A stretch of DNA of 64,000 bases from Spirochaetia bacterium (GTDB taxonomy: Bacteria > Spirochaetota > Spirochaetia > SZUA-6 > Bin103). This document shows positions 8,790 through 15,100 of the stretch, piece by piece. The first letter of the stretch is position 1. Each line of letters opens with the position of its first letter. The stretch is from positions 256,001 through 320,000 of the forward strand of contig CBDBOV010000004.1 of NCBI GenBank assembly GCA_965208575.1, given 5' to 3'. The position numbers and the translations under genes were made by a program. The notes under the pieces were generated by a model. That model was given only the letters and a program-made list of their open reading frames with translations. It was not told the origin of the DNA and did not search any database.

Positions 8790-9197
8790 ATGCAGGTCCG
8801 CATCGACGCGGTAGTGGTGCGTGAGCGAATCCGCTCCGACTTGGGAGAGTTGGAGCCGCTGATGGAGAGCCTGCGTCGCCACGGACAGTTCAGCCCGATA
8901 CTGATTTCCCGCGACTCCGAGCTGGTCGCCGGCCACCGGCGCCTGGAATCGGCGCGGCGGCTTGGTTGGAGCAGCATCGAGGCGATCGTGCTCGACCAGG
9001 CCAGCGACGAGACACTGCTGGAGTTGGAGATTGAGGAGAACGTGCAGCGCAAACAACTCAGCCATGAGGAACTCGCCGCGGCCGTGGCACGCCTGGAACG
9101 GCTGCGCCGCCCTTGGTGGTTCGAGCGCGTGTTGAGCTGGCTGACCCTGCGTTGGCGGCAGCTCACCTGCTGGATTGGCGTCCCACCTGGGCGCTGA
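8790..9197 (+). CDS. ParB N-terminal (ParB/Srx) domain protein
   Basis: 'LMESLRRHGQFSPILI...LVAGHRRLESARRLGW', 'ENVQRKQL'; no HTH or C-terminal domain. Confidence 0.88.
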   Translation: MQVRIDAVVVRERIRSDLGELEPLMESLRRHGQFSPILISRDSELVAGHRRLESARRLGWSSIEAIVLDQASDETLLELEIEENVQRKQLSHEELAAAVARLERLRRPWWFERVLSWLTLRWRQLTCWIGVPPGR

Positions 9198-11031
9198 CTT
9201 GATCCCGGGTTACCGAGTACCACAGCGGGCGCCCGTGCGGACAGTGCTGCAGGTCGATGGCAAACGACTCCCGCGCTATGGCAGCCGCCGCATCGCGGTC
9301 CAGCACTTCGCCATCCTTGACCGCCAGTTTGCACGCGACGTCGGCAAGCACGGCGCGCTCCAGATCCGCTCCGCTGCCCCGCACTCCGGCGACGTACTCC
9401 CGGAGCCACCGTGCCGGTAGTTGATGCAGCGGTTCGGCCAGTGCCGTGATGCGTCGCGGCCGGCCCTTCTCCAGCTCTACCACGATGCCGACCCCGACGA
9501 GCAGGTCGCGCGCCTCGTGCAGCGCATCGGCGGATTCCGGCTCCAGGTCGAGTTCGATGGGGAGCAGCAACTGCTGGATGGCGAACGAGCGCCGGCGGAG
9601 GCGCTCGTAGAGCACCCGTTCGTGGGCCGCGTGCTGATCGACGAAATACAGGGTCCGTCCGATCTCGACGAGCAGAAACGTGCCGAGTGACTGGCCGATG
9701 TAGCGGATGCCGGCGCTCCGGTCCGGGAGCGAGATGCCGTCGTCGGCAGCGGAGGGTCCGGGTGTGATCACCCCGGGCGTGCCCGCCGTGGCGACATGCG
9801 CCGCGGAGTCAGGCCCCGGCCCGGTTGAGTGGACGGTCCCCGCGCCGGCGCCGCTTGCCGGGTTTCCGGCCACGTACGGACGGGCGGGATCCGCAACCGT
9901 GGCAGGCGGTCGGGCGGGGCCGGGGAAGGCGCGGCCATCGCGGCCGGTGAGCGGCAAGGACTCCGGCCCGCCCTGCTGCGCCGGCAACGGCGATCGGTGG
10001 CCGAACCGAACCACCGCTTGTTGCACGAGTCGTACCACCGCCTGGTGGAGCGGCGCCAGGTTTCGAAAGCGCGCCTCCCGTTTCGCGGGATGCACGTTGA
10101 AGTCCACGAGATGGGGAGCAATCTCCACGAACAGGCAGGCAACCGGGTGTCTGCCGCCCGCGAGGATCGCGCCGTAGCCGTACTCGAGCGCCTGCACAAG
10201 CCCGAACTGCTGGATCCGCCGGCGGTTCACGAACACCATGAGCCGCGCGCGGTCGCGGCGTGCCAGCTCCGGGCGCGCGCCGATTGCCGCAACCCGAAAC
10301 TCGGCATAGTCGCGCCGCGCCTCGAACAGGTCATCCGGCATCACCGGGCTGCCGAGCACGTCCGCAACCCGGTCGCGCAGCCCGGCGGAGGCCAGGGTGG
10401 TGTCCGCCTCGCCGTCCACGGAGAGGCGCAATGTCACTCCCGGATGAGCGAGCGCCTTCTCCAGCACCATGCGCCGGCACAGGGTGGTCTCGGTGCCGGG
10501 CCGGCGCAGGAAGCGGCGCCGGCCCGGCATGTCGGCGAACAACCGGGTTACCTGAACGCGGGTACCCGGCGCCGCCGCCGCCGCGCTGATGCGCCGCTCG
10601 CGGCTGTCGGCAACCAGGCGCGCCGCCGTCGTTGCCGTGCGCGTACGGGTAACCACTTCGAGGCGTGCGCATGCCGCGATGCTCGCCAGTGCCTCGCCGC
10701 GGAATCCGAGGGTGGTGGCATGCAGCAGGTCGTGCTCATTGCTGATCTTGGAGGTCGCGTGGCGCAGACCGGTCCGTTGCAGTTCGGATCGCGCTATGCC
10801 ACGGCCGTTGTCATGCACGGAGATCTGACCAAGGCCGCCCGAGTCGAGTTGCACGTCGATCTCGCTTGCGCCGGCGTCGAGCGCGTTGTCGATCAGCTCG
10901 CGTACGATCGAGAACGGGCGTTCGATTACCTCGCCGGCGGCAATGCGGGCGGCAACGTCGGCGTCGAGCACGCGGATGGCACCGGGTGCACGCGCCTGCC
11001 GGCCGCCGCCGCCGGACGCTGCCGCCGGCAT
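9163..11031 (-). CDS. mutL: DNA mismatch repair protein MutL
   Basis: 'IAAGEVIERP', 'GFRGEALASI', 'DFNVHPAKRE', endonuclease 'DQHAAHERV', 'ACK', 'CPHGRP'; start estimated. Confidence 0.97.
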   Translation of the reverse strand: MPAAASGGGGRQARAPGAIRVLDADVAARIAAGEVIERPFSIVRELIDNALDAGASEIDVQLDSGGLGQISVHDNGRGIARSELQRTGLRHATSKISNEHDLLHATTLGFRGEALASIAACARLEVVTRTRTATTAARLVADSRERRISAAAAAPGTRVQVTRLFADMPGRRRFLRRPGTETTLCRRMVLEKALAHPGVTLRLSVDGEADTTLASAGLRDRVADVLGSPVMPDDLFEARRDYAEFRVAAIGARPELARRDRARLMVFVNRRRIQQFGLVQALEYGYGAILAGGRHPVACLFVEIAPHLVDFNVHPAKREARFRNLAPLHQAVVRLVQQAVVRFGHRSPLPAQQGGPESLPLTGRDGRAFPGPARPPATVADPARPYVAGNPASGAGAGTVHSTGPGPDSAAHVATAGTPGVITPGPSAADDGISLPDRSAGIRYIGQSLGTFLLVEIGRTLYFVDQHAAHERVLYERLRRRSFAIQQLLLPIELDLEPESADALHEARDLLVGVGIVVELEKGRPRRITALAEPLHQLPARWLREYVAGVRGSGADLERAVLADVACKLAVKDGEVLDRDAAAAIARESFAIDLQHCPHGRPLWYSVTRDQVSAQVGRQSSR

Positions 11032-11060
11032 CACTTCGGCTCCGCCGCCGCCGGCAGCGC

Positions 11061-11069
11061 TGTTATACT
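11061..11069. promoter_or_regulatory. Extended -10 element, possibly bidirectional (DUF503 / mutL)
   Basis: TGtTATACT on the + strand; the same bases read TATAAC on the - strand; lies in the 55-bp divergent gap. Confidence 0.5.
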
Positions 11070-11086
11070 GGCCACGAGAAAGCTGC

Positions 11087-11374
11087 ATGGTTGTGTCGAT
11101 GCTGCACCTGACTGTCGATCTCCCCGGCGTGGGTTCGCTGAAGGAAAAGCGCCGTGTGATCGGATCGTTGAAAGAAAGGATTCGTCACAAGTACAGGGTA
11201 TCAATTGCCGAGGTGGGCACCAATGACCTGTGGAACGTTGCCGAAATCGGGTGCGCGGTGGTATCCAATTCGCATACGTTCGGTGAGTCAGTGTTGCACA
11301 AGGTGATCGGTTACGCCGAGGAGCACCTGGCCTACCCGATCCGCAGCGCACAGGTGTTTTCCGAACACTACTGA
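11087..11374 (+). CDS. DUF503 (YlxP-like) protein
   Basis: 'SLKEKRRVIGSLKERIRHKYRVSIAEVG' signature. Confidence 0.9.
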   Translation: MVVSMLHLTVDLPGVGSLKEKRRVIGSLKERIRHKYRVSIAEVGTNDLWNVAEIGCAVVSNSHTFGESVLHKVIGYAEEHLAYPIRSAQVFSEHY

Positions 11375-11379
11375 GAGGG

Positions 11380-12153
11380 GTGCGCCCGGTGCTGCGCGGG
11401 CGGGGCCGGCGCGCGGCAGTTGAACGGCGGCGGGTATTCTGGTACCTATCGAGTGTGTCGCTGACGAGCGTTGTGCGGCTTGCGGTGGCGGTTCTGACTG
11501 CGGCGCTGCTGTCGAGCTGCAACGGAGACGATTCCCAGGCCTCGCCGGCCGCGGAGCGGACGGCGGCGGCGGAAGGCGGCGCCGAAACCAGCGATGGCAG
11601 CTTGCAAGCGGCGGCCGGGTCCGATTCCGCGCAGCCGCCCTCCGCGTCCGGGGCGGAGCTGGATGCGTGGTTCCTCCACCGGAGTGCGCCCCGCCTGCTG
11701 CCACACGACTACGAGATCGGGCCATTGCAGGATCTGCTTGCGGCCGGGGGTACCGAACGCGAGGTGCTGGACACCCTGCTGTCGTTTCTCGGCTCGCTCG
11801 CCGAGGGGAAGATAGCGGAAGCGGCTCTTGCTTCGGAACGCCGGCAAAGCCTGTCCAGGTCGTTGCGGTTCCACGTGCGTGACGGGCGGTTGCCGCACGC
11901 GGCACGGATCGGTGCGGTGACTGTCACGGAAGACCAGGTATACGTCGCCCTGCGCCTGTTCGGCGAACCCGGCCGGGTGGCGGGAGAGGCATACCTGGAA
12001 GCCACGCCCGACGGGTGGCGCATTGCCGACCTGCAACTTGACCTGCATCGGCTGGCACAGCCGTACCAGGTAGCGGCGGAGTTCGAGCCGAGTGCCGCAC
12101 GCTGGCTGCTCCTGAGAAACAACAATCAGGCGGCCTCCGGGACAAGCTCATAA
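11380..12153 (+). CDS. Hypothetical lipoprotein with C-terminus altered by IS insertion
   Basis: Lipobox-like 'LLSSC'; the last 12 residues are read from IS sequence; true start probably downstream. Confidence 0.7.
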   Translation: MRPVLRGRGRRAAVERRRVFWYLSSVSLTSVVRLAVAVLTAALLSSCNGDDSQASPAAERTAAAEGGAETSDGSLQAAAGSDSAQPPSASGAELDAWFLHRSAPRLLPHDYEIGPLQDLLAAGGTEREVLDTLLSFLGSLAEGKIAEAALASERRQSLSRSLRFHVRDGRLPHAARIGAVTVTEDQVYVALRLFGEPGRVAGEAYLEATPDGWRIADLQLDLHRLAQPYQVAAEFEPSAARWLLLRNNNQAASGTSS

Positions 12154-13514
12154 CCGAGTGCGTGTGCCTGCCTTCGGAGCCGGCGTTCAAAGCGGCGCCG
12201 GTCCTGGCGCTCCTCGGCGGCGAGGATGCTGTCATCGTAGGCCACGCGATGCGTGATCAGATGGTAGATGATCCGAGCCAGTTTATGCGCGACTGCAGTG
12301 GTCGCTTCGGGAGTACCCAGACGCGCCCGCATGCGGCGGAAGTGCTGGCCCAGGGCCGATGGGCTGCGGTACAACGACTGGGTCGCCCAGTGCAGCGCCT
12401 GGGCGGCCCGATTGGTGCCCCGACCGGTGTGCGAGCTGATGATCTTGCCGCCGGTGATCTGGTTGTGGGGGCACAGGTGCAGCCAGGAGGCGAATTGCGG
12501 TGCGGTCGGAAAGCGGGACAGTTCCGGGCCGAGTTCGGTGAACAGAACCAGCGCCGTACTTTCGCCGATGCCGGGAATCAGCGTCAGGTCAGTGCCGAAC
12601 AGGTGCGTAAGGTGGCCGCGCAGGTCGAACCGCTTGGCCGGTGACTCGGTTGGCGCCTCGGGCTCCGCATCGATTCCCTCATCCGGTGGGTCGTCGCCCA
12701 CCGCGCCGGGTGGCTCGCTGCTGGCTTCGAACGCGCGGATGCCGGCTTCGATTTCCTGATCGCACTCCGTGATGAGTTGTTGGTAGTGGGCATAGGTCGC
12801 TCGCGCGTGCCGCAACGCCAACAGGTGCTCGGCGCGCCAGTCGCCCTGCAGCGCCTTGATCAAGGTCTCGCGGCTGGCTTTGATCCGCCGGTCGGCCAGA
12901 GCGGCCAACCGCGCCGGATCCCGCTCACCCGCCAGGATAGCGTCCGTAATGGCCAGACCGGTCGTCCCCGTCAGGTCAGAGATGGCATGGTGCAGATGCA
13001 CGTTCATCTGGCTGTACGCCTTCTGCATGTGCAACACGCTGCGCGACGCCATCTTGATCAAGGTGTCGCGATGGCGCAGCACCGAGCGCAGTGCACACAC
13101 CTCGTCGGCAGGGCGGAATGAGCCGCGCAGCAATCCCACCGAGTGCAGGTAGCGCAACCACTCGCAGTCGGCCACGTCGGACTTCCGACCGGGTACCGAG
13201 TGCACGTGACGCGCATTCACCAGCACCACGTCGAAGCCGTGTGCCTCCAGGATCTGATACACCGGAATCCAGTACACACCGGTGGACTCCATCGCCACCG
13301 TGGTGACCTCGCATTCCTTGAGCCAGTCGGCCAAGGCGTGCAGGTCCGCGGTGAACGTAGCAAAGTTCCGGATCGGGTCCGGGTCGCGCTCCGGGCGCAC
13401 AGCCGCGTACACCTCGGTAGCGCCTATGTCCAAGCCGGCAGCGTCCGGGTGCATCACCTTTGGTTGCGCTGTGCGACTGCCCTTGCCCTTGCGTCTGTGT
13501 CTGCGTCGTGCCAT
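12126..13514 (-). CDS. IS110-family DEDD transposase/recombinase
   Basis: RuvC-like DEDD residues in GLDIG, MESTGVYW, KSDVADC; Transposase_20 region 'IPGIG...FASWLHLCP...TGG', 'AVAHKLARIIY'; GGAGG RBS before ATG 13514. Confidence 0.97.
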   Translation of the reverse strand: MARRRHRRKGKGSRTAQPKVMHPDAAGLDIGATEVYAAVRPERDPDPIRNFATFTADLHALADWLKECEVTTVAMESTGVYWIPVYQILEAHGFDVVLVNARHVHSVPGRKSDVADCEWLRYLHSVGLLRGSFRPADEVCALRSVLRHRDTLIKMASRSVLHMQKAYSQMNVHLHHAISDLTGTTGLAITDAILAGERDPARLAALADRRIKASRETLIKALQGDWRAEHLLALRHARATYAHYQQLITECDQEIEAGIRAFEASSEPPGAVGDDPPDEGIDAEPEAPTESPAKRFDLRGHLTHLFGTDLTLIPGIGESTALVLFTELGPELSRFPTAPQFASWLHLCPHNQITGGKIISSHTGRGTNRAAQALHWATQSLYRSPSALGQHFRRMRARLGTPEATTAVAHKLARIIYHLITHRVAYDDSILAAEERQDRRRFERRLRRQAHALGYELVPEAA

Positions 13515-13530
13515 GAAACCTCCGCTACGA

Positions 13531-13717
13531 CTGAGTGGTGCGGCCAAGGCGTGTGTAGCAGGTATTCTCCTGAACGGGATGATCGCCACCCGGCCGCGCC
13601 GGCTGACAACCTCACCAATGACTACGCCACCCGCCCCGGGGCCAAGCTCTTGAACGGGTTCGCAGAACGTAACGCCAGTGACGCGCCGGCCTACTTTCGC
13701 GCTCCACCCAGAACTCT
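13531..13717 (-). ncRNA. Candidate IS110 bridge/seek RNA
   Basis: Upstream non-coding end of the IS; TATAGT -10 at 13724-13729(-); closing stem 13700-13711 with 13531-13542; nested hairpins; two repeated modules. Confidence 0.65.
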
Positions 13718-13792
13718 GCCCACACTATAGCTCACCCTTGTTTCTTTCATGACTGCGCCGGCCCAGGGGCCGGTGGGATAGCTCTTGAGTCC

Positions 13793-15100
13793 GTGATCGG
13801 GAGGTGGCGCCGACCGCACGCGGCCGGTGTGCTGGTGTTGCTCCTGGCTGCCGGTGCGGCGCCGCTCGCGGCACAGGTGCCGCGCGCCCCGCACGCGGCG
13901 CAGGGCCCGCCGGCGGCGGAAGGCGACCAGGTGTCTGCACCGGCGGAAATAGACCGATTGGCGGCGCGCGCCGCGCTCTTGCTGCACCGGCAGGTGCCGG
14001 ATCGAGCCGGCGCAACCATCTGGCTGCTTCCCTTCCTGACCGACACGGGGGTACCGACGCGCCTCGGTCACCGCCTGCAGAGCGCCGTGCACCTGCGGCT
14101 GCTGCGTCACTATCGCTCAGCGGAGATACGGGTCGTGGAGCGGCGGCCGATTGCCGGCGTTGCACCGGCGACCGGCGCACTGCCCGCCGGCGCCGCGTCG
14201 GCGGCTCATGCGCTGGAGTTGGAGATGCAGCCGTTTCGCGACATCCTGAGGGTAGTCCTGCGGGTCCGCAGTTCGGGTATGGTGAGTGACGGCGAATGGA
14301 TCGACCTGCCGGTCAACGAGGAACTGTGGGAGTTGCTCGACGGCGCGGAGGCCGGCGTGCCTCGTTCCGGCGACCTGCCATCCACCGCGGCGGGCGTTGA
14401 ACCGGAAGCATCGCGGACCCCCCTGCCGGCCGCGATCTCGGTCGACCAGGGCCAGCACCGGTACACCTCGGCGGGTGAGGACTGGGTTGCTCTGCAGATC
14501 CCCGCTCCCGGATTCTACCTGCTCGAGGGGCGCTCCTTCGCCGGTCCCCTGGCGGTGTCCCTGCACTACGACCGCCGCGGCGCGCCGGTAGTGACGGGGC
14601 GGGCAGACGCACCCTCCCCTGCCGGCCGCGATCCCGAAGGACTGCCCCGGGGCGTGGATAGCAAGCTCGGGATCTTCTCGGGACTGCGGAAAAGCTACGC
14701 TCGCGTCAGCACGACAACCGGTGACGAGGTGGCGTATTACCTGCGCTTGCGTCCGCTGGACGCCGAGCGCCGCTTCGCCGACGGAACTGCACATGAGGTT
14801 CCGCTCGAGCGCGGCACCGGGTTCCAGACGCTGCGCGTGTTTCGCTCCGGCTCGTACCGGGTGGTTGTCGAAGCCGGCGCCGGCGAAGCCGAGCTGCGCG
14901 TGTTCGGCGTACCGCACATGCGTTCCGTGGCACCGGTCTCCGGAGCGCAACCCGCGGAGCGCGGTTCCACCGGAGCGGGCGGGCAGCGATACGAGCTTGC
15001 AGCCGGAGACTACCTCATCGAGGTGACGTCGGCCCCGGCGGCGCGCACGGCCCGGTTGTGCTGGGCGGCATCCGACTCGTCCGCCCGCTGCGCAGGTTGA
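13793..15100 (+). CDS. Exported hypothetical protein
   Basis: Signal peptide ('AAPLAA|Q'); beta-rich C-terminal repeats (PGFYLLE, SGSYRVVV, AGDYLIEV) resembling PPC-type domains. Confidence 0.6.
   Translation: MIGRWRRPHAAGVLVLLLAAGAAPLAAQVPRAPHAAQGPPAAEGDQVSAPAEIDRLAARAALLLHRQVPDRAGATIWLLPFLTDTGVPTRLGHRLQSAVHLRLLRHYRSAEIRVVERRPIAGVAPATGALPAGAASAAHALELEMQPFRDILRVVLRVRSSGMVSDGEWIDLPVNEELWELLDGAEAGVPRSGDLPSTAAGVEPEASRTPLPAAISVDQGQHRYTSAGEDWVALQIPAPGFYLLEGRSFAGPLAVSLHYDRRGAPVVTGRADAPSPAGRDPEGLPRGVDSKLGIFSGLRKSYARVSTTTGDEVAYYLRLRPLDAERRFADGTAHEVPLERGTGFQTLRVFRSGSYRVVVEAGAGEAELRVFGVPHMRSVAPVSGAQPAERGSTGAGGQRYELAAGDYLIEVTSAPAARTARLCWAASDSSARCAG

Follow-up and report, generated by a model that had tools for sequence, protein, structure and literature searches.

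A predicted bridge RNA in the left end of an IS110-family element from a Spirochaetia bacterium

The sequence analysed here, a 64,000-nucleotide stretch of a Spirochaetia bacterium genome (GenBank assembly GCA_965208575.1, contig CBDBOV010000004.1, positions 256,001 to 320,000; hereafter the window), carries an IS110-family element of 1,673 bp, counted with one copy of its core (12109..13781, delimited by comparison of copies and flanks), of which 15 full copies, 100% identical and in different flanks, are found in its own genome. Unless stated otherwise, all features of the window lie on the minus strand. The element encodes a transposase, or recombinase, of 462 amino acids (12126..13514, with the ATG at 13514 and the stop codon at 12126), which is preceded by a ribosome-binding site, GGAGG (13523-13519), and by a left non-coding end of 267 nt (13515..13781), whereas on the downstream side the core follows the stop codon after just 14 nt. 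The recombinase contains the Pfam domains PF01548 and PF02371, scores 251 bits against the NCBIfam model NF033542 ('IS110 family RNA-guided transposase', cut-off 140), and its C-terminal domain aligns with the IS621 structure 8wt6 (E 1.3e-7), placing a threonine (motif LCPHNQITG) opposite the IS621 nucleophile S241; of 48 orthologue rows, 37 have a readable motif, and these show Thr (12) or Ser (25) at this residue. From sequence comparison we conclude, with high confidence, that the DEDD recombinase is programmed by a bridge RNA encoded in the left end, with a predicted length of about 188 nt (13716-13529). A preliminary description of the window, made from its letters alone, had proposed an RNA-guided (bridge or seek RNA) system with the RNA in the upstream non-coding end, and both the fold and the covariation of the guides described below support it.

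The ends of the element were located by comparing the flanks of the 15 copies, which place its start, CTATCCC..., at 13781 (right donor, RD) and its end, ...TCAGG+AG, at 12109. Because the first constant base is 13781, the non-coding end measures 267 nt and not the 235 nt first described; the terminus had then been set at 13749, probably on account of the subterminal inverted repeat seen there. At 14 of 14 independent sites in the own genome the left junction reads TCAAGAG^CTATCC (caret, position of the join), preceded by C in 11 of the 14, and every right junction shows TCAGGAG, beyond which the sequence varies. In the window the target-derived left flank with the core, TCAAG+AG, occupies 13782..13788 (core AG at 13783-13782), and the left donor with the core, TCAGG+AG, forms the right end at 12109..12115 (core AG at 12110-12109). 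Insertion takes place at (C)TCAAG^AG, with nothing duplicated beyond the core. A sister genome (G002), 85-94% identical in the flanks that were compared, lacks the element: uninterrupted sites were sought at seven positions and obtained at four, three of which show a single TCAAGAG with both flanks abutting, while the equivalents of L002 and L010 gave no match in G002 and that of L008 a partial match that stops short of the junction. Given its 15 identical copies, the element is evidently active.

One pair of copies stands head to tail (G000:C4:1265899-1269251, loci L012 and L015), with the junction ...TTTCTCAGGAG^CTATCCC..., that is TCAGGAG^CTATCC, which is the sequence expected of a circle junction. 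This arrangement would also result from one copy inserting into the left junction of another, leaving TCAAGAG there.

We built a covariance model from seven orthologous left ends with a hand-curated structure. It matches the window over 188 nt (13529..13716; 177 bits, E 1.9e-47) and yields 48 matches (E <=0.001) in 47 loci, each ending just before a recombinase gene; the 16 matches in the own 6.5-Mb genome are the 15 copies and one diverged relic. A covariance model from homologous ends had been put forward in the preliminary description as a check on the RNA, and the conserved structure that it was to reveal is thus present. Among 46 distinct sequences, 95.0% of 1,794 cells are paired, compared with 80.2% in shuffles and 31-43% in slid-partner controls, double (compensatory) changes occur in 34 of 45 pairs, and none of 500 shuffles reaches any of these measures. 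A control independent of the model, with MAFFT and RNAalifold on 15 diverse sequences, recovered the stems P2, P2b, P3 and P3c with compensatory changes in 17 of 33 pairs; it missed the closing stem P1 because MAFFT leaves the P1 ends unaligned. G-U pairs are abundant (one pair is U-G in 46 of 46 sequences), so that the RNA strand is that of the recombinase gene.

The predicted fold is a three-way junction made up of P1, a 9-nt junction bulge and two homologous arms that stand side by side. P1 pairs CUGGGUGGAGC (13701..13711) with GCACCACUCAG (13541-13531, that is 13531..13541), ends 8 nt before GGAGG, and is paired in 86-96% of cells with double changes at every pair. Between P1 and P2 lies the bulge GCGAAAGUA (13692..13700), near-invariant in close orthologues as GCG(A)AAGUA and replaced by ACAGCUACA in the Acidobacteriota clade. 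The target-binding arm (13640..13691) consists of P2 (GGCCGGC, 13691-13685, with CUUGGCC, 13646-13640), the 5' loop side GCGUCAC (13684-13678) and the apical stem UGGCGU/ACCCG with a small hairpin (13677-13655), and the donor-binding arm (13544..13639) of P3 (CCGGGGC, 13639-13633, with GCCUUGG, 13550-13544, plus GUG/CAC), the 5' loop side GCGUAGUCAU (13627-13618) and the apical stem UGGUGAGG (13617-13610) with UCAUCCCG (13582-13575) around a variable hairpin. In each arm an internal loop thus separates a basal stem from an apical stem of the form UGGnG(U/A).../...(A/U)CCCG, and the donor-arm pairing UGGUGAGG/CC-AUCCCG is formed in 100% of cells. We rejected an ACCCG/CGGGU stem that would enclose the guide in the manner of IS621: it is present here and absent in G018, G008 and G019 (CCCGU).

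Parts of the fold first drawn by eye survive in this structure. Its closing stem (86% of cells paired across the 46 orthologues, double changes at all 10 pairs) and its end just before the ribosome-binding site both hold. Its inner stem, paired in 72% of cells overall, includes a GGCG/CGCC half that is not conserved and a GGCC part that competes with better-supported partners, and three of its seven pairs fail in 19-25 of the 46 sequences. Neither the stem called arm 1 (ACCCGUUC/GGGCGGGU, 60% of cells paired) nor the GUAG/CUAC stem of arm 2 (48%) is conserved. The GGUG/UACC stem of arm 2 reaches 85%, mostly through G-U pairs, and competes with the fully paired apical stem of the donor arm. As a whole the first fold is paired in 72% of cells, and the nested architecture that it implied gives way to guide-bearing arms placed side by side on the junction closed by P1.

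Each apical stem is followed immediately on its 3' side by a segment of 8 nt that ends in AG. The first, UUCAAGAG (13647..13654, on the 3' side of the first loop), equals the left flank with the core at 14 of 14 insertions and is the predicted left target guide; the second, UUCAGGAG (13567..13574, on the 3' side of the second loop), is the predicted left donor guide, its last 7 nt being the last 7 nt of the element (12115-12109). These guides and their order, which the preliminary description lacked, provide the decisive evidence. For the comparison of guides with DNA, left ends were anchored on clade-conserved first bases in 41 of 48 rows, 40 of them non-redundant. Across these the target guide and the left flank 5' of the core agree at 160 of 200 positions, against 91.6 +/- 5.7 after shuffling (0 of 10,000 shuffles), which bears out the covariation of loop bases with target sites that had been proposed as a further check; the Acidobacteriota clade alone gives 90 of 125 against 70.0 +/- 3.6. 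More than ten different target 7-mers track their DNAs: in G018 the guide UGUCAAG is matched by TGTCAAG at 14 of 16 junctions, two of them in near-identical flanks, and in G008 at five of five, just as AGUCAAG is by AGTCAAG in G020 and UGUGAAG by TGTGAAG in a second G008 element, while both junctions of G019b match and, for the G019a guide AGUAAAG, one of three junctions is exact and the others agree at 6/7 and 5/7. On the donor side, 37 of the 42 elements with enough downstream sequence have the 7-mer of their RNA as an exact match at the right end, compared with 11 of 420 foreign 7-mers; the five misses are truncated or relic copies, and each of ten distinct donor 7-mers is matched by its own RNA.

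The agreement extends beyond the core. The CU that follows the target guide (13646-13645) equals the first two bases of the element, and across the family the RNA base after the core is identical to the element's first base in 40 of 40 cases, with identity over the first two bases in 37 of 40; in one element the RNA and the element start have changed together (CGUG to CAUG), at the cost of one basal-stem pair. As a putative right target guide, the first loop has on its 5' side a 6-mer whose end lies two bases ahead of the apical stem. With the core G and the right flank it forms 134 of 192 Watson-Crick pairs, against 99.9 +/- 5.8, and it does so in a single register. The Acidobacteriota clade is the source of this signal (GCCGAC/TCGGC, GGGGAC/TCCCC, GGCGAC/TCGC). 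In three of five G008 right flanks (L025, L035 and L115), CATC(G/A) stands 0, 1 or 2 bases after the core and is complementary to CGAUG on the 5' loop side of that element, which may represent a right target guide with flexible spacing. Two candidates for a right-donor guide, GGUGGCGUAG here and UUGCGUAC in Acidobacteriota, were rejected, as they overlap a covarying helix and do not follow donor changes; by eye, GGUGGCGUAG is partly complementary to CTATCCCACC here, without covariation in G018 and G008.

The predicted recombination core is the dinucleotide AG in every clade. Across the family AG alone is common to target-left and donor-left (GTCAAG versus AAGGAG, GATAAG versus TGGGAG), which does not sustain the 3-nt core originally suggested. 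In the window's element GAG happens to be common to both, and that element, taken alone, would be compatible with a core of three bases.

The diverged relic in the own genome is a truncated element of the G018/G008 type (L017, G000:C4:146440-147241) and has its own bridge RNA (189 bits), whose guide UGUCAAG lies beside the flank TGTCAAG. In G018 (L034/L119, G018:C3:2560624-2566236) one copy is fused by its right end to the next copy, precisely behind the GTCAAG of the latter's guide-coding DNA, which acts as a pseudo-target; the second copy consequently lacks the left 190 nt of its end. In G006 a relic bridge-RNA copy (L022, G006:C2, 3274-3458; 97 bits) is found, left- and right-end fragments surround the single full copy, and the left junction of that copy, CTCAGAAG, is one base off its guide. 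The Acidobacteriota loci L053-L094 resemble one another even in the left-flank sequence that precedes the guide match (as in GATCGGTAC-CGATAAG^TCGGCTT), and L056 carries a copy of the uninterrupted site 142 nt upstream of its RNA; the target in this clade looks like a repeated genomic sequence.

Several observations weigh against the bridge-RNA interpretation or limit its reach. The pairing counts were taken on an alignment fitted to the covariance model itself. The minimum free energy of the single sequence (-92.3 kcal/mol) does not stand out from that of shuffles (-90.8 +/- 4.8 kcal/mol; z = -0.31), 66 of 200 of which fold as well, a single fold being uninformative at 64% G+C. Rfam gave no match at gathering score in the window and none at E <=10 in 11900-14000, and a scan of 12050-13850 for sigma-70 promoters and terminators called none, the lack of a promoter being the part that counts against an RNA. 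With regard to targeting, of the 346 TCAAGAG heptamers in the own genome, 14 belong to junctions and 15 to the copies' guide-coding DNA; the other 317 are neither, and the heptamer alone is therefore insufficient to explain the choice of site. C follows the core at 9 of 14 independent sites and at about 43% of unoccupied TCAAGAG, which demonstrates no right-flank preference. Between the 5' loop side and the right flank only 2-4 of 6 positions match in the window's own clade, and because no right-flank guide is demonstrable there, the target is effectively about 8 bp. We identified no right-donor guide either: a mutual-information scan returned clade markers, confounded by clade structure. Lastly, the window's own empty site in G002 (L121, G002:C76, about position 1500; orthologous to window 12108/13789) reads CTCAGGAG and not CTCAAGAG. 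This sequence is identical to the element's right end and could reflect a substitution, or a deletion between the near-identical 8-mers that flank the element.

That empty site speaks for a bridge RNA with its loops swapped, in which UUCAGGAG reads the target, UUCAAGAG the donor, and exchange takes place within CTCA; in the window's element the two guides differ by one base only. The three other empty sites, however, are TCAAGAG and the tandem junction is TCAGGAG^CTATCC, the left-junction heptamer varies among G018 copies while the right end never does, and the G018 junction TAAGGAG^CTTGG is possible only with exchange at AG. We consider a swap of the loops highly improbable. We give still less credence to a role at the level of DNA, by which the CCCG-UUCA(A/G)GAG repeats would be internal copies of target and donor, or binding sites of the recombinase, with no guide RNA involved. 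The guide-coding DNA is itself target-like, as the G018 right end joined exactly after GTCAAG in another copy's guide DNA illustrates, but DNA sites do not predict compensatory changes or the many G-U pairs, which fit an RNA of the transposase-sense strand only, and in the homologous systems IS621 and ISEc21 the use of an RNA has been shown experimentally, according to the accessible parts of the reports (PMC11208160, PMC11208158, PMC11187229). Least credible to us is that the structure does no more than regulate the translation or stability of the transposase mRNA as its 5' leader, with incidental matches to the flanks: such a leader would lie, as this one does, directly upstream of the ribosome-binding site and be co-transcribed with the gene, but P1 leaves that site unsequestered, and the DNAs are followed by ten different 7-mers on the donor side and by more than ten on the target side.

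We return to the bridge RNA as the preferred reading. The element would leave as a circle with the junction ...GUUUCUCAGG-AG-CUAUCCC..., the recombinase would bind both arms of the RNA, and strands would be exchanged at AG (CT on the other strand), as in IS621; the CU after the target guide might then stabilise the exchanged product in the manner of a handshake guide. The guide order is probably reversed relative to IS621 and ISEc21, with the top-strand guide 5' and the bottom-strand guide 3'. We hold this less firmly than the RNA itself, as it is sister clades alone that show a guide on the 5' side.

Further features surround the RNA gene. The hexamer TATAGT (13724..13729), a -10-like sequence 8 nt upstream of the covariance-model match, is indeed present at 13729-13724 as first described, and lies 52 nt inside the terminus rather than 20; a TA-rich hexamer stands at the aligned place in six of seven close orthologues, that of G006 (TATTAT) one column off. 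Directly after the 8-nt right-donor segment follows a GC-rich hairpin, CCGGCCC-CUG-GGCCGG (13758..13773), and by eye other clades have a hairpin of different sequence at the equivalent position. The left and right subterminal inverted repeats, AGAAACAA (13738..13745) and TTGTTTCT (12115..12122), are 8 bp long. The longest inverted repeat that the left and right ends share lies 30-40 nt inside the left end in 32 of 34 orthologous elements; its median length is 7 bp (at least 7 bp in 26 of 34), and its core sequence exists in at least five variants, both ends changing together.

Outside the element, the flanks at 11380-12107 and 13790-15100 (plus strand) form one continuous sequence in G002, 93% identical from the first flank base. 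The flanking open reading frames (257 and 435 aa, plus strand) have no Pfam match, and a 641-aa frame at 9163-11088 (minus strand) has an N-terminal sequence that, by eye, resembles the DNA mismatch repair protein MutL.

Five other genomes of the same order contain related elements, with 73-83% protein identity, and more distant ones (42-69% identity) stand at 52 loci in Acidobacteriota, Proteobacteria, Campylobacterota and other metagenome-assembled genomes (MAGs). A tblastn search of plasmids matched 448 records, 61 of them from Citrobacter, every one annotated just as 'IS110 family transposase'; many Enterobacterales plasmids (Citrobacter, Enterobacter, E. coli) carry relatives that are 46% identical across 96% of the protein. 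Because the plasmid relatives carry no element names, the clade cannot be placed against IS110 and IS1111 references. It spans Spirochaetia, Acidobacteriota, Proteobacteria, Campylobacterota MAGs and Enterobacterales plasmids, with recombinases of about 455-480 aa and Ser or Thr at the nucleophile position.

A bridge RNA in this element was to be expected, since such RNAs are predicted in 85.7% of IS110-group elements, as the accessible part of PMC11208160 states. The RNA family described here may already be among the 86 bridge-RNA covariance models (32,190 loci, many unlike IS621) outlined in the available portion of a 2026 preprint (10.64898/2026.10.21.760802). Within the limited literature covered, we found no paper on an IS110 bridge RNA with a three-way junction or on a reversed guide order, and the parts open to us of two further preprints (10.1101/2024.06.21.599552 and 10.64898/2026.08.14.744561) add nothing on architecture. 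What the present analysis offers is a well-supported model of a divergent architecture, described by a covariance model, the exact ends of the element, its target sites and the corresponding empty sites, which bears on the relation of the IS110 and IS1111 layouts. It would also show, in a natural element, how a single 8-nt guide can direct targeting almost unaided.

The following comparisons rest on the published systems as described in the available excerpts of PMC11208160 and PMC11208158 (IS621) and PMC11187229 (ISEc21, the IS1111 group and ISMtsp17). The IS621 bridge RNA comprises a 5' stem-loop, a target-binding loop (TBL) and a donor-binding loop (DBL), with no closing stem named there, and its core is CT. 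Like IS621, the window's element has its RNA in a long left end upstream of a DEDD recombinase, one target and one donor loop, guides of 7-9 nt in the sense of the DNA top strand that include the common core dinucleotide, and extra bases beside a guide that match the other DNA, handshake-like. In contrast to IS621, its sense guides lie 3' of the apical stem-loops (UGGCGU/ACCCG and UGGUGAGG/CC-AUCCCG) and not 5', an arrangement that departs from the IS621/ISEc21-type architecture; its core is AG in transposase sense instead of CT; its arms are closed by the long P1 into a three-way junction; its recombinase has 462 aa, compared with 326-328, and Thr in place of S241; and its subterminal inverted repeats are 6-9 bp, compared with 2-3 bp. 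When the complementary strand is read, the IS621 scheme fits, with a CT core, a 5' 'left' guide and a 3' 'right' guide with handshake bases, but the RNA and recombinase genes then point the opposite way relative to the sites.

Like the seekRNA of ISEc21, the RNA lies in a non-coding region upstream of the transposase gene (tnp) and, in the Acidobacteriota clade, contains short segments matching both target strands; the top-strand match is 3' of the bottom-strand match in ISEc21, whereas here, in the clade that shows both, it is 5', so that the guide polarity would be opposite to that of both upstream-RNA systems tested at the bench. This order is that of the IS1111-type seekRNAs of ISEc11, ISPa11 and ISKpn4. 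Shared with the IS1111 group are also subterminal inverted repeats of at least 7 bp (the group's range being 7-17 bp) and the S/T of the motif GL-P----S(t)G. The IS1111 group differs in having its non-coding region downstream of tnp and transposases of 330-350 aa, compared with the upstream region and 462 aa found here; those of the IS110 subgroup proper have 395-455 aa. ISMtsp17, a relative of IS1111 with an upstream non-coding region, resembles the window's element, by description only, in combining IS1111-type features with that location, and differs in its length class, which is presumably that of IS1111. We tentatively suggest, as a possibility short of an even chance, that the clade represents a third RNA-guided layout within IS110, which joins IS1111 geometry, guide order and repeats to an upstream RNA gene whose arms are clamped by a closing stem; if so, the window's own sub-clade would work by 'half' target recognition of about 8 bp, and the clade as a whole would be an extant intermediate in the translocation that has been proposed to carry the bridge RNA from one end of the element to the other.

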